Of a DNA stretch of 64,000 bases, positions 18,082 through 38,564 are shown piece after piece. The stretch's first letter is position 1, and the number at the start of each line of letters is the position of its first letter. The position numbers were made by a program, and so were the translations under genes. This stretch comes from Deltaproteobacteria bacterium (GTDB taxonomy: Bacteria > Desulfobacterota > Binatia > UBA9968): assembly GCA_009692615.1 (NCBI GenBank), contig SHYW01000001.1, forward strand, positions 14,348-78,347. The letters run 5' to 3'. The notes beneath the pieces were generated by a model, which ran no database searches, was not told the origin of the DNA, and worked only from the letters and a program-made list of their open reading frames with translations.

Positions 18082-18182
18082 CTCGCAAAGGCGCAAAGAC
18101 GCAAAGTTCGGAAAGATGTTTTGTAGGGGCGCGATTCATCGCGCCCTCTGACTTAACCTTTGCGCCTTAGCGCCTTTGCGAG
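18082..18182. repeat. Composite hairpin element: CGCAAAG-octamer arms + GTTCGGAAA core + embedded GGGGCG palindrome
   Basis: Left arm CTCGCAAAGGCGCAAAGACGCAAAG. Right arm CCTTTGCGCCTTAGCGCCTTTGCGAG is its reverse complement with 2 mismatches. Core TTCGGAAAGATGTTTTGTAGGGGCGCGATTCATCGCGCCCTCTGA. Lies between hyuB and the MBL-fold gene. Confidence 0.7.
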
Positions 18183-18223
18183 AAAAAATCTCTTTCCGAA
18201 CCGACCTTGGAAAAAAGTGAATT

Positions 18224-19063
18224 ATGGAACAGCTCACAGCAAACGTTTTCGTGGAAACGCAGCAGAAGGGCGCCAATCATGGGTTGGTGACGACTTCGGA
18301 CGGGCTGGTTCTCATCGACACGCCGCACAGGCCGAGCGACGCAGTGCGTTTGCGCGCTGAAATTGAGCGGCGCGGCAAGCTGCGTTACATCATCAATACC
18401 GAGCCGCACAGCGACCACTGGACCGGCAATGCGTTTTTCGACGTGCCGGTGATCGCCCACCATGGCGTGCGCGCGCGCATCCTTGAAACTGACACAGCGA
18501 CTCATCTCGCGCGGGTCGCTTCTTTTGGACCTGAAGAGCCGAAGCTCTTGGAGAACTATCGCGCCAACGCGCCGGTGATTACCTTCGAAAGCGAGATGAA
18601 ACTTCACGTCGGCAATCACACCTTCCGCATGATCCACATGCCCGGCCACACGCCCTATCAAGCGGCGGTGATCGTCGAAGAGGAAGGCGTGACGTTCACC
18701 AGCGATAATATTTTCTGTAAAGTGCAGACCTGGATACAGGAAGGCCAGCCAGATGACTGGCTGAAATCGCTCGAATCGTTGCGTGCGCTGGGCGAAGATA
18801 CTTTCGTTCCCGGCCACGGGCCGGTGTGTGATAAAAGTTATTTAAATGAGCAAGGCGGGTTCATTCAAGAATGGCTCGACTACGTGCGCGGCGCCATCGG
18901 GCGCGGCATGAGCAAAGAAGAATGCGTGACGAATCTCACGTCGTTGACCGACAGATATCCGATGGATGTCGAGCAAGACGGCATGGCGCCGCGGGTGATG
19001 CAGCTGAATGTTGCTAATCTGTACGACTATTTGACGGCGGCGGGAATCCACGCTCGTAGGTGA
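18224..19063 (+). CDS. MBL-fold metallo-hydrolase
   Basis: Metallo-beta-lactamase motifs: HSDHWTG (HxHxDH), HMPGHTP, PGHGP. Confidence 0.8.
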   Translation: MEQLTANVFVETQQKGANHGLVTTSDGLVLIDTPHRPSDAVRLRAEIERRGKLRYIINTEPHSDHWTGNAFFDVPVIAHHGVRARILETDTATHLARVASFGPEEPKLLENYRANAPVITFESEMKLHVGNHTFRMIHMPGHTPYQAAVIVEEEGVTFTSDNIFCKVQTWIQEGQPDDWLKSLESLRALGEDTFVPGHGPVCDKSYLNEQGGFIQEWLDYVRGAIGRGMSKEECVTNLTSLTDRYPMDVEQDGMAPRVMQLNVANLYDYLTAAGIHARR

Positions 19064-19128
19064 TAGAGATCAGAAGTTAGAAGTCAGAGTTCAGACGGCA
19101 GAAGTCAGCAAAGAATGGGAGGGTCGCC

Positions 19129-20118
19129 ATGAAGTTAAGAAGTCTTATCGCGGTGTTCGTAAGTCTTGTGTTCACAACAGCTTCATTCGCCGCCGCGCAA
19201 CAGCCGGCAAAAATCCCGCGCATCGGTTACGTGTCGGGAACCGGTGACGCGATTAATCAGGGTCCCTACGTCGAGGCATTGCGCCGAGGTCTGCGCGAGC
19301 TCGGTCACGTCGAGGGGAAAAACTTCATAATCGAGTATCGCGGCGCCGAGGGGAAACTAGATCGTGTCCCAAGTCTCGTAACCGAGCTTCTGCAACTCAA
19401 GGTGGATATCCTTGTCGCGTCGATTCCCCAAGCAATCTTCGCGGCAAAGAAGGCAACCCAAGCGATTCCGATTGTTATGGTAACCGGTCTGGATCCTGTC
19501 GCGACTGGACTTGTCGATAGCTTGGCGCACCCCGGAGGAAATATCACTGGACTCGCCACACTGAGTCTGGAGTTAAGCGAGAAGCGACTGGCGTTGCTTA
19601 AGGAGGTCGTGCCGCGGGTATCGCGCGTTGGAGTTCTGCGGAATCCAACCGAGCAAGCTGGAATTATTGCTTTCAAAGAGTATGAAACCGCGGCGCGCAT
19701 TCACAAAGTCTAACTACGATCCCTTGACGTTCAAGGGCCAAACCCTGACTTAGAGGCGGCTTTTCAAAGCGCGGCCAAAGCACGCGTGGGCGCGCTCATC
19801 ACCGTCACGACCGCGCCTCTGCTGCTGCAGTCGGAGCGAATCGCCCAACTGGCCATTAAGCACCGCTTGCCTTCGATGTTCCAAGGCGCAACTTGGGTAG
19901 ATGCGGGCGACCTGATGTCTTACTCAAGCAATGATCTTGACGCTTTTCGCCGCGCCGCCACGTACATTCACAAAATTCTCAAAGGCACGAAGCCCGCTGA
20001 TATACCCGTTGAGCAGCCGATGAAGTTCGAGTTCGTGATCAACTTGAAGACGGCGAAGCTGATCGGGCTGAACATCGCGCAGTCGGTGCTGTTCCGGGCG
20101 GACCGGGTGAATCAGTGA
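19129..20118 (+). pseudogene. ABC transporter substrate-binding protein (ABC_sub_bind/PF04392-type) interrupted by a single in-frame TAA
   Basis: ORFs 19129..19713 and 19786..20118 are in the same frame. Read together they align end-to-end with intact paralog 20126..21133. The only disruption is the TAA at 19711..19713; it aligns with a Leu codon in the paralog. Confidence 0.7.
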
Positions 20119-20125
20119 AGAAGGC

Positions 20126-21133
20126 ATGAGGCATGAGGCGAAAGTAATGAGAAATCAGATGAAACGATTTATTTTAGTATTAGCCCTGAGTTATTTGTTC
20201 TCATCGCTTAACGGTTTGACGCTGGTCGGCGCCGCGGAAAAAGTTCCGCGCATCGGTATTCTTTTCATGGGCGGCAAAGATCAGCCGCATCTGGAATCGT
20301 TCAAGCAAGGTCTGCGCGCGCTTGGTTACACGGAGGGGAAAAACATTATCATCGAGTACCGCTACGCCGAAGGCAACCAGGACCGGCTCGGCGATCTTGC
20401 CGCCGAGTTGGTGCGCGACAAAGTCGATGTCATCGTTACCACCTCTGGGATCAGCGCCAACGCGGCTCGACGGGTAACCCAAACGCTACCGATCGTCATG
20501 ACCACCGGCGATCCACTTGAGTCGGGGCTTGCCGCGAGCCTGGCGAAACCGGGCGGAAACGTGACCGGCTTGAGCATCATGTTGGCCGACATGAGCGTCA
20601 AGCGGCTAGAGCTGCTTAAAGAATCCTTTCCCAAACGAACCCGCGTTGCGGCGCTGTGGAGCCCGGGCCAGCGCGAAGCGGTCATCGGATTTAAAGAAAC
20701 TGTAGATGCCGCCAAAGTTTTATCCTTACGTTTGCATCCGTTGGAAATAAAGTCGGCCGCTGATATCGACCCCGCGTTCGATGCGATGACCAAGGCGCGC
20801 GACAGTGCACTGGTGGTAATCCTGTCGCCGCTCGCCACGCTGAACTCGAAACGCATCGTCGAGCTCGCGCTTAAGCACCGTCTACCGGGAATCTATCCGA
20901 CTCGACAGTTTGTCGAGGAGGGCGGGCTGATGGCCTACGGCCCGTTGATCGGCGATCTGTACCGCCGCGCGGCAACCTATGTGGACAAAATTCTCAAAGG
21001 AAGAACGCCCGCCGACCTGCCCATCGAGCAGCCGATGAAATTCGATTTCGTCATCAGCCTGATAGCGGCCAAGCAGATCGGCGTGACGGTTGCGCCGAAT
21101 GTGCTGGTGCGGGCGCAGAGGGTGATTCGATGA
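20126..21133 (+). CDS. ABC transporter substrate-binding protein (ABC_sub_bind family, PF04392)
   Basis: Signal peptide, then RIGILFMGG...GKNIIIEYRYAEGN...PIVMTTGDP..GGNVTGLS, the hallmark order of this family. Intact 335 aa. Confidence 0.8.
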   Translation: MRHEAKVMRNQMKRFILVLALSYLFSSLNGLTLVGAAEKVPRIGILFMGGKDQPHLESFKQGLRALGYTEGKNIIIEYRYAEGNQDRLGDLAAELVRDKVDVIVTTSGISANAARRVTQTLPIVMTTGDPLESGLAASLAKPGGNVTGLSIMLADMSVKRLELLKESFPKRTRVAALWSPGQREAVIGFKETVDAAKVLSLRLHPLEIKSAADIDPAFDAMTKARDSALVVILSPLATLNSKRIVELALKHRLPGIYPTRQFVEEGGLMAYGPLIGDLYRRAATYVDKILKGRTPADLPIEQPMKFDFVISLIAAKQIGVTVAPNVLVRAQRVIR

Positions 21134-21171
21134 GCCGAGTCGTTAAGGGGATTGAGTAACGATTGCCAATA

Positions 21172-21624
21172 TCAGGGTCCGGGCGACGGCGTGAGTTTGG
21201 TTTCGAGTGCGGCGACTTCTTGTAAGGCAAGCCACTCGTCCGGGTTGAGCACGGAGATCGTAGCGGCATCGAAGTCTTTTTTGTTTCGGGTGATGAGATG
21301 ATTGACGGCGATCGATTCAGCGCTGACAAGTTGAATATTGTCTTCAAAGTCGGGGCCTGCAGCGATGATTGCCCGATCGAGGACGGCTTGACTCAAAGCT
21401 ACCAGATGAAGCCCACTCAAGATCGCTTGGGCGTCGGCACGCGCGGTAGTTTCGTCTACGACTCTGCGCCGAAAGAAATAAATCAAGGGCAATGTGAGCG
21501 CGGATGTCGAGCTCTCGATCTCTTGCGAGCGCCGCGCCAGGTTAAGCACACGGAGACTCTCTGTCCAACCGCGCCGCTTGGTCATCACGTCAATGAAGAC
21601 ATTGACGTCGATGAAAATCTTCAA
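21172..21624 (-). CDS. vapC: Type II toxin-antitoxin system VapC family toxin (PIN domain)
   Basis: MKIFIDVNVFIDV N-terminus with conserved acidic PIN residues. 4-bp overlap with the upstream small antitoxin ORF. Confidence 0.8.
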   Translation of the reverse strand: MKIFIDVNVFIDVMTKRRGWTESLRVLNLARRSQEIESSTSALTLPLIYFFRRRVVDETTARADAQAILSGLHLVALSQAVLDRAIIAAGPDFEDNIQLVSAESIAVNHLITRNKKDFDAATISVLNPDEWLALQEVAALETKLTPSPGP

Positions 21625-21911
21625 TCGGTTATTCTCCGCGCAACGATCTCACGAATCAGCGCCTTGTCGTCCTCGACGGGATTTGCCGGATGGATACCGA
21701 CTAGGGCAAGAAGATCAGGATCGATCGCCACGTCGCGACACGGCTTTGCTAACTCGTCGCGGTCGGTGTCGTTGTGTCGCGCTAGCGCTTCATCCCGCTC
21801 TTTTTGTTCAAGGAGGGAAAGCAGCTGGCGTTCGAGGGCGCGCAAGGTCGATGCATCCTCGTTGCGCACGAGCTTGAGCAACTCATTTACTTGTTCTGGT
21901 GTTTTACCCAT
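21621..21911 (-). CDS. Putative antitoxin partner of VapC (unclassified family)
   Basis: ~97 aa ORF directly upstream of vapC, overlapping it by 4 bp (ATGA). No recognisable RHH/AbrB/Phd signature. Confidence 0.5.
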   Translation of the reverse strand: MGKTPEQVNELLKLVRNEDASTLRALERQLLSLLEQKERDEALARHNDTDRDELAKPCRDVAIDPDLLALVGIHPANPVEDDKALIREIVARRITD

Positions 21912-22034
21912 GGTGGACCAGATTATAGACGGCGGCCTGACCAAGGGTCAAGCTCGCACTGGGCGTCGATAAGATATTCGCCAAGCAGATCGGCTTGAAA
22001 ATACCGCTATTGATTGTTGCCTCATGCCTATCGC

Positions 22035-23024
22035 CTATCTGCCAAACGCGCCGCTCTTTTCCAACTCGACCAAATAGCGCCGGTCTATCATGTCGGCGGG
22101 CTTGATCGCTTTGGCGCGCGCGTCGAGAGGCGCGATCTCGTCGAGGGACGCTTGCAGCGCGGCTTCATGAATTTCCAAACGTTGCTCCAGCGCGGGGATC
22201 TCGGATTGGTAGGCGGCATCGAGCACTTTGGTGTCGGTGATGCGCATGTATTTGCCGATCACCTTGTAAACGAAGGCTCGGTCCGTGTGCATGATTCTCG
22301 ACGCTTCCGCCATGGAGCGCATGAAGCGGCCGATGACCGGGCCGCGTTTGTTGATCAACGAGCGCAGGGTGACGACGCAGGTCGCGGCGTAGGGAATCTT
22401 GAGATCAAAACCGTTGACGACATAACGGTAGCCGCGAGACGCCACCTGAAAGTCTCCCGGCGCTACCAATCCAGCGGCGTCGACGTTGCCGCCGAGCAGC
22501 GCTGCGACCGTTTCCGGTCCGCCGCCGGTTTGAATGGTCTGAATGTCACGGCTGGCATCCATGCCCAAACGTTTCAGCGCTTGTACGACGAAAAAGTGGG
22601 TGTTGCCGCCGAAGCGGCCGACGGCGACTTTCTTGCCCTTGAGATCTTGCGGGCTCTTGATGTCGGCCTTGCCCATGATGCTGTGGGTTAAAAAATTTTT
22701 CATGCCGCCGATGAAGACTAGATCGGTGCTGCCTTGAACGATGGCGCGGACGTTGGCAACCGCGCCGGTGACGCCGATCTCGGCATCGCCGCTCAACGTC
22801 GCCGCGGTGGCGACCGGCGACGAGGGGATGAAAACTAAATTGAAGTCGAGATCGTATTTCTTGAACAGGCCGGCTTCCCGCGCGATCCAGGGCATCGACT
22901 GCGACAACACTTGCGCCGAGTGAAGACCGATCAACCGGTCCGCGGACCTGGCGTGTCTGGGACAGCCGATGGTCATGATGGAGACGAGCAGAATGGACAA
23001 TGAGATTTTGTCGGCGATTCGCAT
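22035..23024 (-). CDS. ABC transporter substrate-binding protein (NMT1/THI5-like, NitT/TauT/SsuA family)
   Basis: Signal peptide. MPWIAREAGLFKKYDLDF and the two-lobe NMT1 pattern. Paralogs at 38582, 39732 and 51304. Confidence 0.75.
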   Translation of the reverse strand: MRIADKISLSILLVSIMTIGCPRHARSADRLIGLHSAQVLSQSMPWIAREAGLFKKYDLDFNLVFIPSSPVATAATLSGDAEIGVTGAVANVRAIVQGSTDLVFIGGMKNFLTHSIMGKADIKSPQDLKGKKVAVGRFGGNTHFFVVQALKRLGMDASRDIQTIQTGGGPETVAALLGGNVDAAGLVAPGDFQVASRGYRYVVNGFDLKIPYAATCVVTLRSLINKRGPVIGRFMRSMAEASRIMHTDRAFVYKVIGKYMRITDTKVLDAAYQSEIPALEQRLEIHEAALQASLDEIAPLDARAKAIKPADMIDRRYLVELEKSGAFGR

Positions 23025-23038
23025 TTTCGTGGTCCTCC

Positions 23039-24340
23039 TTAACGCGTCATCACGGCTAACGATTCAACATGAAAGGTTTGGGGAAAAAAATCGATCGGTT
23101 GCACTGAGCGAAGTTTATAACCCAGCTTGGCGAGGTTGGCCAGGTCGCGCGCCAAGGTCGTCGGGTTGCAAGAGACGTAAATAATTTTCTCGGCTTTGAG
23201 CGCGGCCAAGTCGGCTTCGATGCCTTTGGCGCCGGTGCGCGGCGGGTCGAGGACGATTTTGTGATAGCTCTGCCGTTGGCGTTTTAGGCGCGCCACTGCT
23301 TGGGGCACGCTGGCGCATTGCCATTCGATATTTTCCAGCCGATAGCGCTGCGCGTTGAGTTCGCCGCTGGCAATCGCCGCGCGATGACCTTCGATAGCCG
23401 TCACCTGGGCGACGCGACGAGCCATTGGCAAAGTGAAATTGCCGGCGCCGCAGTAGAGATCGAGAACCTTATCTTGGGGTTTAAAATCGCCGGCGGCGAG
23501 CAGTTGCTCGATCATTTGCCGGTTGCCGTCGCTGTTTACTTGAGTGAAGACATCGGCGTCGACTTCGAGCGTGAGTTCTCCTTGGAGTCTGACGGTGATC
23601 AGCGTGCGGCCGTAAACTTTTCGTTCGTGGCGCGTTTGAATGATCAAGCCGCCGATGCCGTTGTCGGCGCCGACCAATCGTTCGCAGGCTGACTCGTTGC
23701 CAGTGAGAAACGACTCGGCTGGCTGGGCGACCGCGACGAGTTCGTTAGCTTCATCGCCGCCGACCAGCTCCAAATGTTCGATTGCGCCGTTGAGTTCGTT
23801 GAGCCAACGGCGCAGTTCAGCGAGTGGCGCGTTCAAGCGCGCGTCGGCGATCGAGCAGGAGTCGATTTCGACAATGCTGTGGGAGCCGGGGGCGAAGAAT
23901 CCCAAAGTGCCATCGGCGCCGACTTGCAGACGAATGCGCCGGCGATAGTGAAATGGATCGTCGGCGGCGATGATCGGCTTCAGTTCAAAATCGCCGAGCT
24001 TGCCGATGCGCCCGAGCGCGTCGGCGACGCTTTGCTGTTTGGCTTTGAGTTGCGCCGGATAGTTTAGATGCTGCCAGGAGCAGCCGCCGCAACGGCCGAC
24101 GTAAGGGCAGGGCGGTGTTTGGCGCAGCGGCGAGGGCTCGATGAGGCGCAGGATTTCGCCGATAGCGTAGCGCTCTTTGGATTCGACAATCCGCGCCAGG
24201 AGCTTATCGCCAGGCGCGCTGTCGGCGATCATCACCGCCTTGCCATCCAGGCGGCCGACGCCGTAAGGCCCGTAGGCGAGAGCGTCGATAACGATCTCGG
24301 CCTCTGGTTTGAGTTCAACTTTCGCGTTAGTCTGTGCCAT
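23039..24340 (-). CDS. rlmD: 23S rRNA (uracil(1939)-C(5))-methyltransferase RlmD (TRAM + 4Fe-4S + class I MTase)
   Basis: N-terminal TRAM domain. Cys cluster CPYVGRCGGCSWQH. SAM-binding LDLYCGAGNFTLP. Catalytic ...DPPRTG... The real start is probably MAQTNAKV; the ORF-track start extends into the promoter. Confidence 0.85.
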   Translation of the reverse strand: MAQTNAKVELKPEAEIVIDALAYGPYGVGRLDGKAVMIADSAPGDKLLARIVESKERYAIGEILRLIEPSPLRQTPPCPYVGRCGGCSWQHLNYPAQLKAKQQSVADALGRIGKLGDFELKPIIAADDPFHYRRRIRLQVGADGTLGFFAPGSHSIVEIDSCSIADARLNAPLAELRRWLNELNGAIEHLELVGGDEANELVAVAQPAESFLTGNESACERLVGADNGIGGLIIQTRHERKVYGRTLITVRLQGELTLEVDADVFTQVNSDGNRQMIEQLLAAGDFKPQDKVLDLYCGAGNFTLPMARRVAQVTAIEGHRAAIASGELNAQRYRLENIEWQCASVPQAVARLKRQRQSYHKIVLDPPRTGAKGIEADLAALKAEKIIYVSCNPTTLARDLANLAKLGYKLRSVQPIDFFPQTFHVESLAVMTR

Positions 24341-24419
24341 CTGTGCAATCCGGACAAAGAAACAAGAACATTTAACCGCAAAGAACGCAAAGTAGGCAAA
24401 GAAAAAACATCGGCAAGAC

Positions 24420-24785
24420 ATGGAACCGCAAGACGATCCGCGCTTTATCAAAGGCATCGAGGAGTTTAACCGGCAGCTTTTTTTTGAGTGTCATGAGACC
24501 CTCGAAGAGTTGTGGCTCGAAGAGCGCGGCGAAGACCGCAAGTTTTATCAAGGCATCATTCAAGTCGCCGCCGGCTATTACAAGTTGCAACAGGGTGTGC
24601 CGGTTGGCGCGCTCAAGTTGTGGCGTACGGGACTAGAAAAGCTTCAGCCCTTCGAGCCGGTCTACTACGGCATCAACGTCGAGTCGTTGATCGGCGCCGT
24701 ACGCGCCAACTTGGCGCAGTTGGAAGCCGGCGAACCCAACGCCGTCGATGTCTTGTTGCCGCCGACCATCGCATTGTTCTGCTAA
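24420..24785 (+). CDS. DUF309 domain-containing protein
   Basis: FNRQLFFECHETLEELWLEERGEDRKFYQGIIQVAAGYYKLQQG matches the DUF309 consensus. Confidence 0.6.
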   Translation: MEPQDDPRFIKGIEEFNRQLFFECHETLEELWLEERGEDRKFYQGIIQVAAGYYKLQQGVPVGALKLWRTGLEKLQPFEPVYYGINVESLIGAVRANLAQLEAGEPNAVDVLLPPTIALFC

Positions 24786-24794
24786 CCAACCCGC

Positions 24795-25481
24795 ATGATC
24801 CGCTGCCGCGACCTTCACAAAGTTTATCAGCAGGGCGACAATCGGATTACCGCGCTGGCGGGGATCTCATTGGAGATCGCCAAGGGTTCGTTCACCGCGG
24901 TGATGGGGCCGAGCGGCTCGGGCAAGAGCACGCTGCTGCATTTAATCGGCGGTTTGGACCGGCCGAGCGGCGGTGAATTGTTGGTCGACGGCCGCTTGAT
25001 CGGCCAGATGGCCGACGACGAGATCACGCTGTTTCGGCGCACGCAGATCGGTTTTGTTTTTCAGTTTTTCAATTTGCTGCCGACGCTGAGCGCGCTGGAA
25101 AACGTCGCGCTGCCCTTCGTGCTCGACGGTAAATCCAAATCGGAAGCCGACGGCCGGGCGAATGCGCTGCTCACCAAAGTCGGTTTGCACAATCGCCAAC
25201 ATCATTTGCCTGAAGCGATGTCGGGCGGCGAAATCCAACGCATCGCTATCGCTCGCGCACTGTCGTTCAATCCGCCGGTGCTGCTCGCCGACGAACCCAC
25301 CGGCAACCTCGACTCCAAGACCGGCGCCAGCATTCTCGCCCTGCTCAGCCAAATCAATCAAGAAGAAGGCTGCACGGTGGTGATGGTGACGCACAGTGGC
25401 GAGGCGGCGGGATTTGCCAGTGGGCGGATTTATTTGCGCGACGGAAGATTGGAACCGGCAGGGGTGAAGGGTGAAGGGTAA
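24795..25481 (+). CDS. ABC transporter ATP-binding protein (LolD/MacB/FtsE-like)
   Basis: Walker A GPSGSGKST, Q-loop, signature LSGGEIQRIAIARAL, Walker B LLADEPTGNLD. Confidence 0.85.
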   Translation: MIRCRDLHKVYQQGDNRITALAGISLEIAKGSFTAVMGPSGSGKSTLLHLIGGLDRPSGGELLVDGRLIGQMADDEITLFRRTQIGFVFQFFNLLPTLSALENVALPFVLDGKSKSEADGRANALLTKVGLHNRQHHLPEAMSGGEIQRIAIARALSFNPPVLLADEPTGNLDSKTGASILALLSQINQEEGCTVVMVTHSGEAAGFASGRIYLRDGRLEPAGVKGEG

Positions 25482-25536
25482 CCCCGCTTTCTTCGATGCG
25501 CCTTACCCCTAACCCTTTACCCCTTACCGTATTTGC

Positions 25537-28119: not shown

Positions 28120-28167
28120 GATCGATTAGCCGCAAAGAACGCAAAGTCGGGGAATCTCCGATTCTCG

Positions 28168-29242: not shown

Positions 29243-30516
29243 GCGCTAGCCGTCGCTTGAGCCGGCTTCGGTTGCAACAAGGCAAAATAAAGCAGCGCGG
29301 TCAGCCAGCAGATCGCCATCAAAGCCCAGTAAAGCATCTGGTAACTTCGCGTGCGGTCGTAGACAATGCCGGCGAGCAGCGGCCCGAGGACGCTGCCCCA
29401 AGTGTAGAGAAAGCTCATGCTGCCGCGAATCTTGGCGAAGTTGTGCCGGCCGAAAAAATCGCCGACGGTGGCCCAAGTAGTCGGAAACAATCCTTCGAAG
29501 ACGCTGAACAGCAACAGCGCAATCCACAGCTGCCATAGCTGTCTGCCGTTGAACAAAAAATAAATCGCCACGCTGCCGAGCAGCATGAAGCCGGCCATCA
29601 AGCGCGGTTTGTCGAAGCGATCGCCGAGCCAGCCGATCAATAAATGCGTCGGCATGCCGCAGATGGCGATGACGCTCAAATAAAAAGCTCCTTCGGTTTC
29701 CGAGTAGCCTTTCCAAACCAGGATCGGCACGAAGTGGACCAGTACGGCACTGGAGCAAGCGGCGCGCAGGGTGGTGGCGACGGTCAGCAGCCAAAATTGA
29801 TGGGTGTGGAGCGTTTGGCTGAGCGACAGCTCGCGCGCGGCGGTTGCCGTGGCGGTGTCACGATTTTCTTTCGTTTCGTTGAAACGTGCGGTATCGCCGT
29901 CGGACAATAATCCCAGGCTTTCGGGTGAACGGTGAACGCAAAACGCCAGCGGTAAGCCGACGAGGAGAAAGGCGATGCCGGAACCGATGGACGCGCTGCG
30001 CCAACCCCAGCTGTGTACTGCGTAGGCGAGAAACGGCGTTAGCAGCGCGCCGCCGAGGGCTATGGATCCGCTGGTGATCGACATGGCCAAGGCGCGTTTG
30101 CGGATGAACCAAGTGTTGGCCAACGCCATCGTCGCGTCCATGAAACCGGCTTGGTAGGGGAGCGAGATGATGCCCATGTAGACGATCAGCAGCATGGTGT
30201 AACTGTGCACACCGGCCAAGAGCAGGTAGCCGACGCCGGCCAGCGCGATGGCGATGGCGATCACCGGACGCGGCCCGTAGCGGTCGATGCAGTAACCGGC
30301 GACCGGTCCTTCCAAGGCGCCTTGGGCGCGCGCCAGCGAGAAGACCAGCGATGTCGCGGTGCGCGTCAGGCCCAGTTCTTCAGTCACCGGCAAAAAAAAC
30401 ACCGAGATGCCGTAGGCGTGCAAGCCGCCGCCGAGCACGCGGATGGCACAGCTGACCGCGATCATACGCCAGCCGAAGTAGAGGCCGCGGAGTTTGTCGG
30501 GAATTGCTTGAAACAT
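29239..30516 (-). CDS. MFS transporter
   Basis: 12-TM MFS topology (GLYFGWRMIAVSCAI...GPVAGYCIDRYGPRPV). Tandem paralog of the upstream gene; 1-nt stop/start overlap (TGATG). Confidence 0.8.
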   Translation of the reverse strand: MFQAIPDKLRGLYFGWRMIAVSCAIRVLGGGLHAYGISVFFLPVTEELGLTRTATSLVFSLARAQGALEGPVAGYCIDRYGPRPVIAIAIALAGVGYLLLAGVHSYTMLLIVYMGIISLPYQAGFMDATMALANTWFIRKRALAMSITSGSIALGGALLTPFLAYAVHSWGWRSASIGSGIAFLLVGLPLAFCVHRSPESLGLLSDGDTARFNETKENRDTATATAARELSLSQTLHTHQFWLLTVATTLRAACSSAVLVHFVPILVWKGYSETEGAFYLSVIAICGMPTHLLIGWLGDRFDKPRLMAGFMLLGSVAIYFLFNGRQLWQLWIALLLFSVFEGLFPTTWATVGDFFGRHNFAKIRGSMSFLYTWGSVLGPLLAGIVYDRTRSYQMLYWALMAICWLTALLYFALLQPKPAQATASA

Positions 30517-31835: not shown

Positions 31836-31941
31836 CCTATCCGAGGGAGGCGAAGTCTGTCAACGCGGTCTGCGAAAATCGCTGATAGCCGCGTTTCTGG
31901 GTTGTCGTTGGGTGAACGCACGAATGTCGCTGGGGGATTTT

Positions 31942-32017
31942 TTCACCACAGAGCACACAGAGAACACAGAGTTCGGAAAAGTATTTTCTCTGTGATCTCT
32001 GTGTGCTCTGTGGTGAA
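31942..32017. repeat. Hairpin element with CACAGAG-octamer stems and GTTCGGAAAA loop
   Basis: TTCACCACAGAGCACACAGAGAACACAGAG - TTCGGAAAAGTATTTT - CTCTGTGATCTCTGTGTGCTCTGTGGTGAA. The 30-bp stem has 1 mismatch. Between the MFS gene and the M24 peptidase gene. Confidence 0.75.
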
Positions 32018-32195
32018 TCAATCTTCGTTTTGAGACTAGATCCCTCACGTTCGTTCGGGATGACAATCTGGATAATGGCTTGCACCCCAGGTTGTCATTT
32101 CGACCGTAGGGAGAAATCTGTCCGGCTCCGGTGCGCTCGCCGTCATTCCCGTGTAAACGGCAATCAAGGTTCGTTTCTGGCAAAAAAGCTAAACT

Positions 32196-33350
32196 TTATC
32201 CCTTGCAGGTCACCCACTGGCGCGGGTAAGCGTTCAAACTTTCGCAGCCATATTTTTTTATCACCAGAGTTTCGCCGAATTGCAGGCCCATCTTTTCGTC
32301 GTAGGTCATGAGATTGGGCTGGATGACGATCACCATGTTCTCGCGAAAGGTGATCTCGCGCGAGTCGTGGCGCTTGCGGGATTTGGTTTGAAAGATCGGC
32401 GGATATTGATTGACGCCGTGGACTAGATCGTCGTAGGTGCTGTAGCCGCGCTGGTGAATGATCTCCGCCGCTTCTTCGGCTTCGGTGGTGGTCGCGCCGT
32501 CCTTGATTACCTTCGACAAAATGTCGAAGGCTTCCATCGCTGCGTCGTGCATTTTTTGCCAATTCGGCGTGGGGCCCTCGCCGATGGAAAAGGTTCGGTG
32601 GATCTGGCCGCTGTAGCCGGAGTAGGCGCCGCTGATCTCGCTGATCAAGGCGTCGCCTTTTTGCAGCTTGCGATTGGAATGGAACTGGGATGGCACGCAG
32701 AAGTCCGGGTTCGCCATCGGCATGCTGCTGATGAAATGAATCCCGGCGTAGCCGCCGGCTTTTAGATAAACCGGTTCGATGATCGCGGGAATTTCATCTT
32801 CGCGCAGGCCGGCGTGCAAGCCTTCGGCCAGCGCTTGGATCGATTGGTCGGTGAGCTTAGAGGCGGTGCGGATGCGTGCGATTTCGTCGTCGCTCTTGAT
32901 CGTCCGCATCATGCGCAGCTTGCCGCCTAGTTCGACAAAAGTCGCGTTGGGATATTTTTCGCGCAGCCGATTGAAGACCTGATAGGAGATCGATCCGACC
33001 AGGCCGATCTTTTTTCCTTCCAGGCCGCGCTCGGCGATTAATTCGACGACGCTGTTCGTAGTATTCGCGCCGGCCCAGCGCAGGTCGGGAATCCACGACA
33101 TCACCTTCGCCATTGGGTAGTGATTGAACAGCTGCATCAAGATCACCGGTGGCTTGCCGGTTTGCATAAGCAGATAAGCTTCCCGGCTGCTCGGCCAATC
33201 GCTCAGCCAATAAATGTCGGAGGAATAACGCCCGCTGCCGTAAATCACGGCGGCATCAACGCCTTCCTGTTCCATGAGAGCATAGAAAGCGCGATGGCGG
33301 CGATTCAGTTCGGCGTCGGAAAATGTCGGATAGTCGGATCGTTGGCGCAT
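32196..33350 (-). CDS. M24 family metallopeptidase (creatinase/Xaa-Pro dipeptidase-like)
   Basis: N-terminal creatinase_N domain plus C-terminal pita-bread fold with metal ligands (..HGVNQ.. ..ENMVIVIQP..). Confidence 0.8.
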   Translation of the reverse strand: MRQRSDYPTFSDAELNRRHRAFYALMEQEGVDAAVIYGSGRYSSDIYWLSDWPSSREAYLLMQTGKPPVILMQLFNHYPMAKVMSWIPDLRWAGANTTNSVVELIAERGLEGKKIGLVGSISYQVFNRLREKYPNATFVELGGKLRMMRTIKSDDEIARIRTASKLTDQSIQALAEGLHAGLREDEIPAIIEPVYLKAGGYAGIHFISSMPMANPDFCVPSQFHSNRKLQKGDALISEISGAYSGYSGQIHRTFSIGEGPTPNWQKMHDAAMEAFDILSKVIKDGATTTEAEEAAEIIHQRGYSTYDDLVHGVNQYPPIFQTKSRKRHDSREITFRENMVIVIQPNLMTYDEKMGLQFGETLVIKKYGCESLNAYPRQWVTCKG

Positions 33351-33418
33351 AGTTAAGAACTCCTAATGTGAATTGTCAGTTGGGCCGCGGCGATTTCGCG
33401 ATCGGCGGTTGCTTCGGT

Positions 33419-34126
33419 CTAGGCCAGCAGTCGGCCGTAGCCGGGAATGGGAATTTTCATGCCCAGGGTCTGCAGCACCCACCACAAGGCCGCCGCCGTC
33501 GAAGCAACGACCGGCCGGCCGGTGTCATCTTCCAGTTGCTGTACATAGCCGACGGTGCGCCAGCGGCCTTGGAGCACGAGACTATCGACATCGGGGTTTT
33601 GGCGAAACAGTTCGCGGGCGACTTTGTAGGATGCGTAGTCCGGCAGTTTTACTTGATCCACCGGCTTTGAAACTTCGAGTCCTTTGATCGCCCTTACTTG
33701 GACGCCGCCGTCGTCATAATATTTTTTGACCGCTTGGTTGATCGAATCTTTATAAGCCGTGACAATCACGGTGCTTTTAACTTGCAAATATTTCAGCGCC
33801 GCGGCCGTGGCGCCCATCGCCGTGCTGACTGGCAAGCCGACTTGGCGCGAAAGTTGGTCGACCACTTCCTGCTCTGCGGCGAAGCCGCGCTGAGTGCCCA
33901 GCGTGATGCCGCCCATCAAAATGACGTCGCATTCTTCAGCCTTGAAAATTCCCAAGCCGGCGCTTAGGGCGTCGATCGCCTTGTTAAATTCGCTTTCGGT
34001 GTGCGACTGAACGTTCAGTCCCGACGAAACGATGGTGAAGCCTTCGGGAAGGATCAAATCCCAATCCGAGGGGGTTTCGAAAACCGAGGGAGAGAGATAG
34101 CCGATGCGTGCTTTCCAACCGGACAT
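33419..34126 (-). CDS. Asp/Glu/hydantoin racemase superfamily protein (maleate isomerase / arylmalonate decarboxylase-like)
   Basis: ~235 aa. IGYLSPS start, two Cys-containing half-domains (VILMGG..TLG; TVIVTAY). Resembles maleate cis-trans isomerase family. Confidence 0.65.
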   Translation of the reverse strand: MSGWKARIGYLSPSVFETPSDWDLILPEGFTIVSSGLNVQSHTESEFNKAIDALSAGLGIFKAEECDVILMGGITLGTQRGFAAEQEVVDQLSRQVGLPVSTAMGATAAALKYLQVKSTVIVTAYKDSINQAVKKYYDDGGVQVRAIKGLEVSKPVDQVKLPDYASYKVARELFRQNPDVDSLVLQGRWRTVGYVQQLEDDTGRPVVASTAAALWWVLQTLGMKIPIPGYGRLLA

Positions 34127-34344
34127 GGAGCCTCCTTAACTGCTGTGAACTTTTCTTATCTCAAGCTGGTGGCGATGGGAAGCTTTGGCAAGCGTTTTGA
34201 CCCGCGTCGCGGCAAATCAAGAGACATCGCTGAAATAAAATGTTATCCTTACGTCTAATCGATAACCACCCCGGCCAAGGTGTCGGCAATAATGAAAGGG
34301 ATAACCTGGAGTACCAGCTAGAGCTTATGAATCTTAAAGCAGAA

Positions 34345-35487
34345 ATGAATTCGATTAAATTTCTTCAATGGCTTCGTTTGAGTGTCGTAGTCGGGTTGCT
34401 GCTGGCCGGTCGGGACAGCCAAGCGGCGGGCACAGAGCCACAAGAGTTTAACCGGCGTGCCACGGCCACGGCGCAGTTGCTGGCCGGCATCATGCCCAAT
34501 CCTCCTGAGCCTGCGTTCAATCGCTTTACCGAACTCGATGCTTGGAAAGAGCATCAAAAATGGATGACCAGTCAATGGGCTTTGGTGCGCGGCCGGCTCA
34601 ATACCATGGAAACGTGGCGCGACCACGAAGTGAAAGTCACCGGCGCTGCGAAAAAGACCATGCTCTACCCGTTCAGCGGCCCGGACTTTATCAATGCCTA
34701 TGCGCTGTTTCCCGATCACGCGCGCTATGTGTTTTTCAGTTTGGAGCGGCCCGGCGCGCTGCCCGACATGGAATCGGTAACCACGGTGCAGTTTATTAAA
34801 CTACTAACCGACGTGCGCGGCGCCTTTCGCGACATCTTCGAGCGTAATTATTTTATTACCTCCTACATGACCAAGCAGCTGACCACGCCGTGGGTGCGCG
34901 GCACGGTGCCGGTGATGGCGACCATGATGGCGTTGATGAACCGGCGCATCGTGCGCATCGAACCCATCGATTTATTTCCCGAGTTGAACCGTGCCTACGA
35001 CACTCCAGACGCCAAGCGGCCGCGCTTGTTGCTGCGCGGCGTGCGCGTCGACTTCGCCAACCCGGCCGCGGCCGGAATTCAGCAGCTTTATTATTTTTCC
35101 TTGGACGCCACGGATAAAGCGCTCGATTATTATCCCGAGTTTCTCAATTGGGTCGGCCAGTACAAACCGGCCACCGCGCTGATCAAGTCGGCATCCTACC
35201 TGTTACATGATGGCCAGTTCGCCAAGACTCGGGCGACGATTTTGGAATCAGCCGATTTAGTCGTGCAGGACGATACCGGGATACCTTACCGCTTTTTGAA
35301 TCAAGCGCCCTGGCATGTGAAGTTGTTCGGCAGGTACAGCAAGCCGATTCGGCCGATGGAATACGCCTATCAAAAAGATCTCGAAAGCGCGTTCAAGGCC
35401 GCTCCCGACCAAGCCGACTTGCCGTTCCCGTTCGGCTATCATTGGCGCAGCAAACAATCGGCTTTGATGTTGGCCCATCGTCAGTAA
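34345..35487 (+). CDS. Hypothetical secreted protein (signal peptide, ~380 aa, no recognised domain)
   Basis: N-terminal MNSIKFLQWLRLSVVVGLLLAG signal. No family recognised from sequence. The ORF-track start at 34240 is probably upstream of the true start. Confidence 0.5.
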   Translation: MNSIKFLQWLRLSVVVGLLLAGRDSQAAGTEPQEFNRRATATAQLLAGIMPNPPEPAFNRFTELDAWKEHQKWMTSQWALVRGRLNTMETWRDHEVKVTGAAKKTMLYPFSGPDFINAYALFPDHARYVFFSLERPGALPDMESVTTVQFIKLLTDVRGAFRDIFERNYFITSYMTKQLTTPWVRGTVPVMATMMALMNRRIVRIEPIDLFPELNRAYDTPDAKRPRLLLRGVRVDFANPAAAGIQQLYYFSLDATDKALDYYPEFLNWVGQYKPATALIKSASYLLHDGQFAKTRATILESADLVVQDDTGIPYRFLNQAPWHVKLFGRYSKPIRPMEYAYQKDLESAFKAAPDQADLPFPFGYHWRSKQSALMLAHRQ

Positions 35488-35491
35488 TCGA

Positions 35492-36358
35492 GTGAGAGCT
35501 TCGCCGGCGCTTTTCCTGATCGGAGCTTGTCTCGCCCTTATGGCGCAAAGCTGTGCCACGCAAATCTCTCGACGCACCTTTCAAACCAGCGACGGCGTGA
35601 CGCTATCGCTGCTTGAAGCCGGTTCGCAACACACGAAGGATTCCAATATCACCATCGCGCTGATCACCGGCTGGTCCATGCCGGCGGCGATCTGGCAAAA
35701 TCAAATCGAACATTTTAGCCGGCGGTATCACACCCTGGCGCTTGACCCGCGCGGCCAAGGCGAGTCGGAAGTGCCGGCGGCTGGTTTCACCGCGGAGCGG
35801 CGCGCCGCCGACTTACAAGAATTTCTTGCGCCATTAAAAAACGTCTTGCTGGTCGGCTGGTCGCTCGGCGCCATCGAGTCGCTGCAATACCTTCACATGT
35901 TCGGCGCCGAACGGCTGGCCGGTCTAGTATTGGTCGACAGTTCGGTGGGCGAAGAACCGGCGCCGGCGCCGGGCGGGACTTTTTTACAGGCGCTGCGCGA
36001 CGAGCGCGACAAAACTCTCGACGGGTTTGTCCGAGCGATTTTCAAGAAACCGTTGAGCGAAGATGAAGTCGCGCGTTTAATCGGCGGCGCCAAGCGCATG
36101 CCGGTGGAAAGCAGTATCGCGCTGTTGTCCTATCCGTTTCCGCGCACACACTGGAAAGAAATCGCCCACGCATTTAAAAAGCCGCTGCTTTATGTGGTAA
36201 CGCCGCAGTTTGAAGAGCAGGCGCAAAACCTGCAGAAGAACCGGCCTGGGACGCAGGTAGAAGTTTTCAAAGACGCCGGCCACACTTTGTTCGTCGATGA
36301 AGCGGAGCGTTTCAACGCGCTGATTGAGAAATTCGCTGCATCGCTGTCGCGCCGTTAA
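35492..36358 (+). CDS. Alpha/beta hydrolase fold protein (secreted)
   Basis: Signal peptide. Nucleophile elbow GWSLG. Asp/His in C-terminal half. Confidence 0.8.
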   Translation: MRASPALFLIGACLALMAQSCATQISRRTFQTSDGVTLSLLEAGSQHTKDSNITIALITGWSMPAAIWQNQIEHFSRRYHTLALDPRGQGESEVPAAGFTAERRAADLQEFLAPLKNVLLVGWSLGAIESLQYLHMFGAERLAGLVLVDSSVGEEPAPAPGGTFLQALRDERDKTLDGFVRAIFKKPLSEDEVARLIGGAKRMPVESSIALLSYPFPRTHWKEIAHAFKKPLLYVVTPQFEEQAQNLQKNRPGTQVEVFKDAGHTLFVDEAERFNALIEKFAASLSRR

Positions 36359-36452
36359 TCTCTAGCTTTCACCTTCCAGACCCTTTAGGGTCGGCACCTG
36401 TACGAGCTGACAAGAAGAGTTAGCGCTAGCGGACCAAGGTGAGGCAACTAAT

Positions 36453-37037
36453 ATGGTCAAATTATTTTGTCCGAACATCGTTGCCCGATTAACTTTTTTG
36501 ATTGTCTTCGCGACCACTTTCGCAGGCTGTCAGGATAAGTGGAAGGCACCCTGGCGACTAGATTCAAAGTACTCAGACTATCTGACAACAATGGCATGGG
36601 ATTATAAAATGATTGCAGGGCACGGCAGTGCTAACACGGTTGATGGCATGCTTATCTATAAGATAGGAGATAAAATTCCAAATGGGGCGAATCGAATTTT
36701 TAGTCTTGAAGAACTTTTTGAGCGGGACATTCTATATGAGAGCCGTGACAAGGAATTCATCCGAAAGTTTTTGGAAGCCGCGCAAGACGAAGTCAAGCCT
36801 ACGCCTACTGAAGCATGCCAAATTGATTGGAACGAAGCATCTTTACATGTGATTCTACTCGACAATACGTTTATGAGAGCAGGTTATTTCATATTTAGGA
36901 CATGTAAAAATGCGGACAACGGAACTGTGTTTACCATGCGCTTTACTCATTATCGCACAAAGTCGTTAGTTCCACTGATAAGGGCAATCGACCCTGTGCT
37001 GCATCACGATCCGCAGTTGCCATTATCCACGCGTTAG
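36453..37037 (+). CDS. Hypothetical lipoprotein encoded in a low-GC islet
   Basis: Lipobox FATTFAGC. The gene is ~45% GC against ~62% for neighbours. No recognisable domain. Confidence 0.5.
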   Translation: MVKLFCPNIVARLTFLIVFATTFAGCQDKWKAPWRLDSKYSDYLTTMAWDYKMIAGHGSANTVDGMLIYKIGDKIPNGANRIFSLEELFERDILYESRDKEFIRKFLEAAQDEVKPTPTEACQIDWNEASLHVILLDNTFMRAGYFIFRTCKNADNGTVFTMRFTHYRTKSLVPLIRAIDPVLHHDPQLPLSTR

Positions 37038-37039
37038 CT

Positions 37040-37290
37040 CGGGAACTGGTCGAAAGATTTTTCGCCCCTATAATAACTCCTTCGTCTGCTTCGTATCTTC
37101 CTGGTGAAATCTACGGCTCGCGGAACAGCCTTCGTAGGATGTGGCGACCGCAGGGAGCCGCATCGTCGGTAAATCGCGCGTGCTCGATGCGGTTCGCGGA
37201 CTCACCGCATCCTACGAGAATCCCTGCGTGTTCTTCGTGCCTTCGTGGTGAAATATGCCGTTGTCGAACGCTACGGTTCGCCGAACAGCC
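37040..37290. repeat. Complex repeat region: CTTCGTG-octamer tracts, internal hairpin, and direct duplication of the amidohydrolase gene 3' end
   Basis: A ~50 bp direct repeat (..CTTCGT..GGTGAAAT..CTACGG.TCGC.GAACAGCC) at ~37072-37122 and ~37222-37285 flanks an inverted repeat (CCTTCGTAGGATG ... CATCCTACGAG). The second copy overlaps the stop region of gene 37271..38434. Confidence 0.6.
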
Positions 37291-38434
37291 GCACGGTGTT
37301 GTCGTAGAGCAGTTTTTGCTTTTGCCTTTCGGTCAGATCCTGCCGTTCGAGGATTTCCAACGCGGCGTTGTCTCTGCCTTCGCCGTGGGGGAAATCGGAG
37401 GAGAACAGGACGTGGTCTTCGCCGATCAATTCGAAGAGCAAGTGGAGCATGCGATCGTCGGCTTCGGCGGCCATGAAGATTCTCCCCGACTTCACATATT
37501 CGCGAATGCTCGCCCGCGGCAGTTCGCCGGCGTTGGGCATGCTCAGGCCAAACGGGTGAGCGCCGCGGTCGAGGGGCAAGTAATGATCCATGCGCGAGAC
37601 CATGTAGAAAATCCATTCGGCGCCGAATTCGAGAAACGCGACTTTCAAATCCTGATAGCGGTCGAGCAAGCGGTGGCCGACGATGGCCATGAAGGCCAAC
37701 TGTGCAGGTAGCGACATGCCGATGATGTGGCAGTCGTAAATGCTCCGTCCCAACTGCGCCAGCGGCGGATAGCTCATGCCCATGTGCACGCAGAGCGGCA
37801 GCTTCGTACGCGCGAACTTATCCCAGATCGGCAGAAAACTCGGATCGGAAAGCAGCCGTTCGCCGGCGGTGCCGAAGACCACGGCTGCTCTGGCGCCGAG
37901 CCGCTGCATCTCTTCGATAGCGGCCAAGGCTTCGCGCGGCTCGCGCAGCGGTAATAAGCCCGACCATTTAAGCCAGGTCGGATTGGCCGCGCATTGTTTG
38001 GCGATGTAGCGATTGTAAGCGCGAAACAACGCGGCCTCGAATTCCGCATCGCTGGTCATATGCGCATAAAGCGTGCTGGGAAACAACATCTGAGCGTCGA
38101 AGCCCATGCGCTCCATGTCGGCCAGCCGCGCCTGGGGATCGTTGAGCGTCATGCTGCCGACCGAACAGTGCTCGCGCTTCATATCGGCGCCGAATTCGCT
38201 CAGCACGTTGCGCGGCGTGTTCGCCTGCTGGGCGCCGGGACCAAGCGCGTGGGGTTCGAGCGACCCTTCGATCAACCAACCGGCGTTGAAATTTCCCAAA
38301 CCGGTTTCGTCGTGCACCGTCACCGGCCGCGGCCGGCGCGCACGAAACTGTTCGGGGAGGTCCTCCCACATACGCGGATTGATCGAGCCATGGGCGTCGG
38401 CGTCAAATACTCGGTAGCCTTGAAGCATAATCAA
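37271..38434 (-). CDS. Amidohydrolase family protein (amidohydrolase_2, PF04909)
   Basis: TIM-barrel metal-dependent hydrolase pattern (DADAHG..., HMGMSYP, FSSDFPHGEG). Paralog of 40836..41864. Confidence 0.8.
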   Translation of the reverse strand: MIMLQGYRVFDADAHGSINPRMWEDLPEQFRARRPRPVTVHDETGLGNFNAGWLIEGSLEPHALGPGAQQANTPRNVLSEFGADMKREHCSVGSMTLNDPQARLADMERMGFDAQMLFPSTLYAHMTSDAEFEAALFRAYNRYIAKQCAANPTWLKWSGLLPLREPREALAAIEEMQRLGARAAVVFGTAGERLLSDPSFLPIWDKFARTKLPLCVHMGMSYPPLAQLGRSIYDCHIIGMSLPAQLAFMAIVGHRLLDRYQDLKVAFLEFGAEWIFYMVSRMDHYLPLDRGAHPFGLSMPNAGELPRASIREYVKSGRIFMAAEADDRMLHLLFELIGEDHVLFSSDFPHGEGRDNAALEILERQDLTERQKQKLLYDNTVRLFGEP

Positions 38435-38480
38435 ATTTTCCTTTTCAAGTGTTTCATCGGTGCCATGTTCAAATTGTTTT

Positions 38481-38564
38481 GTTCACCACGAAGCGCACGA
38501 AGGACACGAAGGGTTCGGATAATTTAATCTTCAACCTTCGTGATCTTCGTGTCCTTCGTGGTGA
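38481..38564. repeat. Hairpin element with CACGAAG-octamer stems and GTTCGGATA loop
   Basis: TTCACCACGAAGCGCACGAAGGACACGAAGG - GTTCGGATAATTTAATCTTCAA - CCTTCGTGATCTTCGTGTCCTTCGTGGTGAA. Between the amidohydrolase gene and the SBP pseudogene. Confidence 0.75.

Follow-up and report, generated by a model that had tools for sequence, protein, structure and literature searches.

Three long hairpins lie between metabolic genes in the DNA of a Deltaproteobacteria bacterium (Binatia, UBA9968; contig SHYW01000001.1, positions 14,348 to 78,347), and they raise the question of whether such elements are RNA structures maintained base pair by base pair or repeats that are kept self-complementary at the level of DNA. 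The whole stretch of 64,000 nucleotides (nt) is referred to as the window. An initial annotation had proposed a dispersed hairpin family with a conserved loop, GTTCGGAWA, and compensatory covariation in the stems, read as selection on secondary structure in either a structured small RNA or an element similar to REPs or miniature inverted-repeat transposable elements (MITEs). The three hairpins (loci 1-3) are apparently members of a widespread, undescribed family of intergenic palindromic repeats spanning several bacterial phyla and phages. They are probably interspersed non-coding palindromic repeats that stay self-complementary via DNA-level processes, with a hairpin function, if any, that does not depend on orientation.

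Short palindromes scattered through a genome influence mRNA stability and operon polarity and also contribute to genome rearrangement. To our knowledge, the well-studied families (REP/REPIN, Correia and BOX) are each restricted to a narrow bacterial group. Habitats and hosts of the family described here include uncultured soil Binatia, Gemmatirosa, human-gut Bacteroides and tailed phages. It is distinguished by arms of tandem nonamers placed between two anchors, by units that are homogeneous throughout an element, by flips in place and by spread across phyla and into phages.

Three intergenic hairpins are built from tandem units

The three hairpins have the following coordinates and composition.

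18065..18200, no strand assigned: locus 1, a sister-type palindrome; CGCAAAG x3 with an 8-nt period, left arm 18084-18106, right arm 18157-18180, TTCGGA at 18107-18112
31936..32023, no strand assigned: locus 2; GATTTTT-TCACC, CACAGAG x3 (9-nt period), TTCGGA (31972-31977), AAAGTATTTT and the complementary arm
38482..38565, no strand assigned: locus 3; TTCACC, CACGAAG x3 (9-nt period), GG-TTCGGA (38514-38519), an AT-rich tip and the complementary arm

All three sites highlighted in the initial annotation hold intergenic hairpins, and each copy does pair with its own partner arm at a level far above chance. The arms measure 42 nt each at locus 1 (18065-18106 and 18158-18199, 79% complementary), 36 nt at locus 2 (31936-31971 and 31988-32023, 92%) and 31 nt at locus 3 (38482-38512 and 38535-38565, 87%). 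Tandem units of 7-8 nt had been proposed; the tandem arrangement holds, whereas the unit is in fact a 7-nt core with a spacer of 1-2 nt. The CGCAAAG units of locus 1 repeat every 8 nt, the CACAGAG units of locus 2 and the CACGAAG units of locus 3 every 9 nt. The motif TTCGGA begins directly after or near the left arm, at 18107, 31972 and 38514, respectively. Locus 1 represents a sister type, with its 8-nt period and an outer anchor CTCTCG...CGAGAG in place of TCACC...GGTGA, and possesses an additional outer pair of TTCGGA (18070-18075) and TCCGAA (18195-18200). The sister-type arm (8-nt period, CTCKCG outer anchor) is found again in L043, L235 and L292, L-numbers being the labels of retrieved comparison loci. 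Locus 3 is the nearest of the three to the canonical metagenome consensus described below, and a degenerate TCTTCAACC faces its TTCGGA.

RNA folding of the three loci yields, for either strand, free energies of -47 to -75 kcal/mol and z-scores between -7 and -12; no shuffled sequence was as stable. For the two strands, the values are -70.5 and -74.7 kcal/mol at locus 1, -61.8 and -57 at locus 2 and -52.8 and -47.3 at locus 3. The two-unit pattern CRCRRAGNNCRCRRAG occurs 10 times in the window against an expectation of 0.13, and its version with an 8-nt period three times against 0.02. A covariance model, a check suggested with the initial annotation, was trained on 36 copies with the window copies excluded. 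Applied to the window, it recovers exactly loci 1-3 as family members (E-values of 1.4e-5, 3.7e-16 and 2.5e-22 for loci 1, 2 and 3), with similar scores on both strands, while the remaining matches are unrelated hairpin repeats.

A long intergenic hairpin of C and G runs (CCCCCTTTGAAAAAGGGGGACCGAGGGGGA...) is located at 8845-8945. It matches the family model weakly (E = 4e-4), as a generic hairpin.

The conserved TTCGGA motif is the inner end of the arm

Each arm is composed of an outer anchor, (T)TCACC or, in the sister type, CTCKCG, followed by three purine-rich units C-R-C-R-R-A-G with spacers of 1-2 nt. Arms of the Binatia subfamily additionally possess the inner anchor TTCGGA. Two inverted arms and a short AT-rich tip form three 7-bp helices parted by small internal loops.

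A metagenome scan for an arm followed by TTCGGA matched at least 120 contigs, nearly all from soil, with 141 distinct elements among the matches listed. Their consensus left arm reads TCACC-ACGAAG nn CACGAAG GA CACGAAG G(G/T) TTCGGA and is followed by an AT-rich tip of about 10 nt and a right arm TCCGAA CTTCGTG CT CTTCGTG TC CTTCGTG-GTGA, the whole representing a near-perfect palindrome. Among the matches listed, the right arm is present in 89 of the 128 elements with enough downstream sequence. TCCGAA, with at most one mismatch, lies opposite TTCGGA in 57 of these 89 complete copies, and the commonest tip length is 10 nt. Since TTCGGA pairs with TCCGAA in canonical copies, the supposed conserved loop belongs to the arm as its inner anchor, which the window copies keep on one side only. 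Recurrence of the motif, as first proposed, is confirmed by 261 kb of Binatia DNA, in which TTCGGA directly follows 12 of 30 arms with the unit types CACAGAG, CACGAAG, CGCAAAG and CGCAGAG; its status as a loop is not. Outside Binatia the motif is rare: among the matches listed on viral contigs, it accompanies 3 of the 43 complete hairpins and 2 of the 74 arms that stand alone (TTCGG or TCGGA scored). A TTCGGA-anchored pattern run against viral contigs returned mostly chance or coding matches and about four genuine or probable elements (L150 and L072; probably L149 and L167).

Covariation acts on whole elements

To compare units by register we used 73 hairpins with three anchored units per arm, of which 28 contain mixed unit cores. 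In these 28, a unit matches its in-register partner exactly in 44% of cases, as against 56% for other units of the same arm and 49% for opposite-arm units out of register. The spacer dinucleotides complement each other in register in just 14% of cases. RNAalifold likewise leaves the spacers unpaired and assigns a covariation term of -0.73 kcal/mol, and the both-sides changes in its alignment come solely from three copies of another unit type. The apparent covariation thus acts at the level of the whole element and not at that of base pairs. Six alike units per element are not required by base-pair selection; they are expected from unit amplification and exchange between arms, which supports maintenance at the DNA level. 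Hairpins of tandem units can therefore mimic covariation without selection on base pairs, a point that matters for automated searches for structured RNAs. The compensatory covariation originally claimed is accordingly not borne out, with one orthologous exception that is weighed below.

These results bear on the small-RNA option, according to which the elements are strand-specific structured small RNAs or cis-regulatory RNAs with a functional GTTCGGAWA loop and a stem kept by compensatory evolution. The very stable fold, the presence of TTCGGA after arms of four unit types in Binatia and the one double compensatory change with an identical loop, between the window and L121, would all fit such an RNA. 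However, TTCGGA is paired in canonical copies, in-register covariation is lacking, the strands fold alike, orientation to neighboring genes is mixed, and, as detailed in the next section, an orthologous copy has been flipped in place and others are missing or replaced at orthologous sites. Locus 1 showed nothing resembling a promoter, and terminator-like sites occur there at chance level. Rfam at gathering thresholds returned no matching family for the window, Bacteroides and Gemmatirosa loci, and at permissive thresholds locus 3 gave solely weak matches to generic microRNA-precursor hairpins and similar models. We therefore regard a structured RNA as extremely improbable and find the REP/MITE-like option to be the better fit of the two initially put forward.

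Elements turn over, can invert in place and share details that suggest copying

Orthologous sites show how the elements change. The element between gmd and fcl is orthologous in Bacteroides ovatus and Bacteroides finegoldii, with collinear flanks of 86.8% identity. Its 72 nt agree at 56 positions in direct comparison and at 68 when one copy is flipped, indicating that the element was inverted in place. Phocaeicola massiliensis has no element between gmd and fcl. Upstream of the DUF309 gene, the window carries an unpaired CGCAAAG arm, L123 a CACGAAG hairpin and L127 a CGCAGAG/CGCGGAG hairpin, and the orthologous sites in L124, L130 and L137 hold other family members or remnants. Downstream of the M24 peptidase gene, the hairpin of locus 2 is kept in L121 only; L122 and L124 have the same neighboring gene but no hairpin. 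The convergent MacB/OmpA site, where the window has the unpaired arm 28124-28146, holds a plain GC hairpin in L129 and L137 at one extreme and, at the other, mosaics such as that of L127 with its full TTCGGA hairpin. In these comparisons of presence and absence the genomes are too divergent to fix exact insertion boundaries.

Features that do not pair are shared between unrelated sites. Across 36 copies with unrelated flanks, the tip consensus is kept, as are the spacers that do not pair (GA opposite CT; TC). A tail module of about 50 nt and a GCGGC-hairpin module likewise recur at unrelated sites. The start of the tail is present beside locus 3:

38452..38481, minus strand: flank module CAAAACAATTTGAACATGGCAC, start of the tail of about 50 nt that accompanies the hairpin, common to many unrelated sites

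Thirteen metagenome copies carry the GGTGAACAAAACAAACTGAACGTGGCAC... tail with different genes next to it. Recurrence of such non-pairing details at unrelated sites argues for copying from shared templates. Orthology of the metagenome copies to the window loci was ruled out, their neighboring genes being paralogues of 22-42% identity.

Local and repeated formation of the elements, by slippage and palindrome formation at terminator hairpins, with their likeness due to shared mutational bias or constraint, would be an alternative to such copying. Binatia do contain intergenic arrays and hairpins with unrelated units (GTTCAAN, ACTCCAAT, GCAGGGAG, GATCCTCG, TCAGAAG and CCTTACC), one orthologous site spans the range from a simple GC hairpin to large mosaics, and unit types vary between genomes at a single site. 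Yet the GA/CT and TC spacers, the tip consensus and the 50-nt tail are shared by more than 100 unrelated sites, which points to template copying, and the same TCACC anchor is present in distant phyla. Local origin is thus decidedly unlikely.

Several loci contain rearranged or compound copies. The tail module (L214 6751-6810 and 12 more metagenome loci) contains a DnaA-box-like TTATCCACA and is well conserved beside unrelated genes. Direct tandem arrays with a 77-nt period, composed of an arm, TTCGGA and a short CACGGAG arm, are located at L213 966-1127 and 2975-3428. At L064 3590-4020, between an open reading frame (ORF) of 513 amino acids and a phage portal gene, a CGCAAAG arm and CACAGAG hairpin are present as a 153-nt triplication. 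Truncated right arms are joined to the module CCTCCTTTGAAAATACCCGTTTGGGG in L124 and L210 (...CTCCTTTGAAAATACCCGTTTGGGG), L224 (...CTCCTTTGAAAATGGG) and L180 (...CTCCTTGGAAAATACATGTGC), a recurrent junction that suggests exchange of modules or insertion of one into another.

The family spans bacterial phyla and tailed phages

The dispersed family first proposed from the window extends to at least 120 metagenome and at least 120 viral contigs and to Binatia, Gemmatirosa and Bacteroides. The same architecture is present in Gemmatirosa kalamazoonensis, in B. ovatus (between gmd and fcl) and in B. finegoldii (after nadC). Viral contigs were searched with the left arm only (TTCACCAC, then NNAG, then two more NN-CAC-NNAG units). 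Among the 117 matches listed, 43 arms have a partner arm, with loops of 1-170 nt, and 74 have none. Free arm positions are 80-100% purine, and the cores vary freely among AG, GA, GG and AA. Some of the arm-bearing contigs represent genuine tailed phages (caudoviruses) with hairpins between late structural genes (prohead protease, connector, portal and Mu F), and phage contigs also show CACAGAG hairpins enclosed by nested CGCAAAG arms. The canonical CACGAAG element had no matches in plasmids and a CACGGAG element none in cultured phages. Literature searches by literal sequence returned nothing beyond an incidental PCR primer, and searches by topic returned general REP/REPIN papers.

This distribution has practical consequences. 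Bacteroides is genetically tractable and its transcriptome maps are published, which makes both function and copying mechanism directly testable. In metagenome-assembled genomes, the elements produce spurious ORFs and assembly breaks.

On another reading, the arms would be rows of sites to which a conserved protein binds by recognizing CRCRRAG nonamers and TCACC, on DNA or single-stranded RNA, the hairpin being secondary. Candidates for such a reader include multimeric RNA-binding proteins, nucleoid proteins and dedicated recombinases. In its favor, unpaired arms are common (the 74 on viral contigs and five in the window), the arrays in L213 repeat arm and TTCGGA directly with no partner arm, the units keep a strict purine pattern, and anchor and units are kept across phyla while spacers need not pair. 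A sequence-specific reader would, however, have to tolerate the AG/GA/GG/AA variation of the cores, no candidate protein is linked to the elements in the ORFs between copies, and the near-perfect palindromy of most complete copies is left unexplained. We consider arrays of binding sites unlikely.

A related proposal, possible if rather doubtful, is that the anchor and nonamer arm (TCACC, then (CRCRRAGNN)x3) is conserved across Binatia, Gemmatimonadota, Bacteroidota and tailed phages because a conserved cellular or phage factor recognizes the arm. This factor could be a hairpin-specific processing or recombination enzyme or a transposition system of a new type. If true, the family would represent a new class of orientation-independent intercistronic element that is used or tolerated by hosts and phages, and no lineage-specific REP look-alike.

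Hairpins lie mostly between co-directional genes and could act in either orientation

Hairpins are found in 51 co-directional, 11 convergent and 6 divergent gaps against a background of 269:74:86, so that divergent gaps are under-represented (6/68 hairpins versus 20% of the background). They lie 8-180 nt from the facing stop codon, never overlap an ORF and occur within operon-like gene pairs and phage late modules. In the window, all three are flanked by co-directional metabolic genes. Locus 1 is located 7 nt past the stop of a Hydantoinase_B gene and upstream of a Lactamase_B gene, both on the plus strand. Locus 2 lies between an M24 peptidase gene and an MFS transporter gene, and locus 3 lies 17 nt past the stop of an NMT1-like gene and upstream of an Amidohydro_2 gene, all four on the minus strand. 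TTCGGA reads on the coding strand at locus 1, whereas at loci 2 and 3 it is carried by the antisense strand.

On the proposed account of interspersed repeats maintained at the DNA level, copies would be made from shared templates, as the identical unpaired spacers and tip consensus at unrelated sites suggest. Units would then slip within arms, and inverted arms would recombine or convert each other, as the in-place flip of an orthologous copy shows. The outcome would be an element filled by a single unit type. When read through into a neighboring mRNA, either strand would yield a similar long interrupted hairpin, which between cistrons or at mRNA 3' ends may hold back 3' exonucleases, mark a site of RNA processing or stop transcription in part. 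By analogy to REP/BIME elements and phage intercistronic hairpins, we infer a role in 3'-end stability, processing or read-through that is independent of orientation. The mismatched spacers would presumably prevent the DNA from forming a long perfect palindrome.

Several observations weigh against this account. No target-site duplication was detected in the flanks of about 140 copies, where flanking similarity instead extends the palindrome, and no clean pair of filled and empty sites was found. No transposase was found near the copies: ORFs between neighboring copies are metabolic, and those by multi-copy viral loci are phage structural genes. Loci 1-3 are not followed by a U-tract, and a terminator scan at locus 1 missed the element; the coding strand after the hairpins continues with A-runs or mixed sequence. 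Classical intrinsic termination is thus unsupported and was rejected as a function. Between locus 2 of the window and the orthologous L121 5805-5878, the spacer changes from CA:TG to GG:CC, a double compensatory change, and the loop of 16 nt is the same in both; selection on structure could account for this. Finally, the same pattern of anchor and units is kept in Binatia, Gemmatimonadota, Bacteroidota and phages. Selfish DNA rarely shows such conservation, which hints at a partner that is itself conserved. With these points included, we judge the DNA-level account to be probable.

Other functional candidates were set aside. Unpaired arms are oriented sense 16:2 near 3' ends and antisense 14:4 near 5' ends, a bias that is expected from split long-loop hairpins and was therefore not counted for a role in 5' untranslated regions; on viral contigs, the distance of arms to the start codon did not differ from control. 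A tandem Shine-Dalgarno-like enhancer (GGAGG in CACGGAGGA) was dismissed in view of CACAGAG-NA and CGCAAAG variants without such cores and of the Bacteroides members, Bacteroides not being known to rely on Shine-Dalgarno pairing to any great extent. Readers such as CsrA, Hfq (A-R-N) or TRAP-like triplet readers were rejected on the basis of unit phasing and variants without GGA.

Unpaired arms and gene neighborhood in the window

Besides the three hairpins, the window contains five unpaired arms. Arm fragments had been noted at 24375, 28124 and 41977 and upstream of 51184; all four are unpaired arms, and a fifth, at 37233-37253, was absent from the initial annotation.

24372..24401, plus strand: unpaired arm TTAACC-GCAAAG AA CGCAAAG TA GGCAAAG, 19 nt upstream of the DUF309 gene start, divergent intergenic
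28124..28146, plus strand: unpaired arm GATTAGC-CGCAAAG AA CGCAAAG, 5 nt past the MacB/FtsX stop, convergent intergenic
37233..37253, minus strand: unpaired arm TTTCAC-CACGAAG G CACGAAG, 18 nt past the Amidohydro_2 stop
41977..42006, plus strand: unpaired decaying arm GATTAGC-CGCAAAG AG CGCAAAC CGCACAA, divergent intergenic
51153..51182, plus strand: unpaired arm GATGCAAAG GT CGCAAAG AAC-GTTCGGGA, followed by a REP-like hairpin GGGGCGACCGGCTGGTCGCCC

Each of the eight window copies is located between genes. One window protein is present residue for residue on two contigs of the ENA metagenome assembly ERZ1305449. The relatives of the M24 peptidase (79-91% amino-acid identity) all belong to metagenome-assembled genomes labelled Candidatus Binatia, 'Deltaproteobacteria bacterium' or 'Syntrophobacter sp. 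SbD2'. A mosaic of small palindromic modules (GATCCCTCACGTTCGTTCGGGATGAC and GTCATTTCGACCGTAGGGAGAAATC) at 32028-32150 forms part of the 170 nt that separate the M24 stop from locus 2, and parts of it are present twice in L121 (5355-5522 and 9150-9284). Among the metabolic genes, a small PIN-domain gene and an upstream partner of 96 amino acids (21172-21911) likely represent a toxin-antitoxin pair.

Other repeat families occur beside the elements

A hairpin of a different repeat family is nested in the loop of locus 1:

18123..18146, plus strand: GTAG-tagged REP-like hairpin GTAGGGGCGCGATTCATCGCGCCC, recurring in L125, L136 and L186

Hairpins of this kind follow the scheme GTAGGGGCG-N-CGCCCC with a variable inner stem and are found at 18123-18146, 42024-42052 and 51186-51210 of the window and in L125, L136 and L186; some of them follow unpaired CGCAAAG arms. 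REPIN-like doublets, in which two inverted GTCATKCCGGCGCAGGCCGGMATCCAG-type palindromes form a larger hairpin, are present at 49975-50063 and 60034-60117, and the same family (GTCATTCCCGCG..CGGGAATCCAG) occupies orthologous intergenic sites in L124, L126 and L127. At 52414-52490 lies an inverted pair of CTTCGACAAGCTCAGSAYGA modules with 26-nt arms that are 88% complementary, and in L186 the same module interrupts a CGCAAAG arm. Two direct arrays have no inverted partner and are located in tight co-directional gaps: TCAGAAG-like x5.6 at 19065-19108, just before the start codon at 19129, and CCTTACC x4 at 25501-25528, ahead of the MacB gene.

Comparison with known repeat systems

REP, BIME and REPIN elements occur in Enterobacteria and Pseudomonas and are mobilized by a REP-associated tyrosine transposase (RAYT), a Y1/HUH enzyme whose gene the repeats usually flank. 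They are high-copy intergenic palindromes that are thought to act as RNA hairpins, and a REP is defined by an unpaired tag, GTAG or CGTC, at one end of an imperfect palindrome of 20-40 bp (PMC3733652). The elements described here are similarly short, high-copy and intergenic, lie mainly in co-directional and convergent gaps downstream of coding regions, form mosaics with other short modules and fold two inverted arms into a long hairpin. It could be argued that they are classical REPs or REPINs mobilized by a RAYT, given that the intergenic, palindromic and high-copy character and the two inverted arms are all REPIN traits (PMC3733652), and that the window also contains genuine GTAG-type REPs and REPIN-like doublets. 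However, the ends here are (T)TCACC...GGTGA(A) or CTCKCG...CGMGAG, without a GTAG or CGTC tag, and the arms are tandem arrays of purine-rich 8-9-nt units, in contrast to the small palindromes that constitute REP arms. REP families are for the most part confined to one lineage, but anchor and units here follow the same pattern in several phyla and in phages. A crude RAYT motif regular expression had no matches in 2.26 Mb of retrieved DNA, which is weak evidence given that this is not a whole genome and that no Y1_Tnp hidden Markov model search was made, and the genes between neighboring copies are metabolic. Mobilization as classical REPs is thus very unlikely.

Bacterial MITEs with terminal inverted repeats include Correia/NEMIS in Neisseria, RUP and BOX in pneumococcus, and ERIC. 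Such elements share with the present family a length of 70-150 bp, inverted ends, many dispersed copies, hairpins within transcripts and presence or absence at a given site in relatives. Here, the terminal inverted repeats are arms of 31-42 nt that are 79-92% complementary, and site variation is seen for locus 2, present in L121 and not in L122 or L124, and for the gmd-fcl copy, present in B. ovatus and B. finegoldii and not in P. massiliensis. In contrast to MITEs, no target-site duplication is seen, the retrieved loci showed no insertion sequence that shares these ends and could be the parent, and the element is almost entirely inverted repeat, with about 10 nt between arms that are themselves internally repetitive.

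The short tandemly repeated repetitive (STRR) sequences of cyanobacteria, reportedly described by Mazel et al. in 1990, are heptamers. They resemble the present family in being tandem 7-nt units that are intergenic, dispersed and of several sequence types, but STRRs are direct arrays and not anchor-units-anchor arms with an inverted partner. Unpaired arms of two to three units and other heptamer arrays do occur here, but the family has spacers, anchors and usually an inverted partner, and its units are not known to be related in sequence to STRR1-3.

Phage late operons contain intercistronic RNase III or mRNA-stabilizing hairpins that are single-copy and differ in sequence. The present elements are similar to these in forming a long stem with internal loops between cistrons or just past stop codons, including those of phage structural genes. 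They differ from such hairpins and from terminators in being multi-copy and in having no U-tract, and their role in processing or termination is putative.

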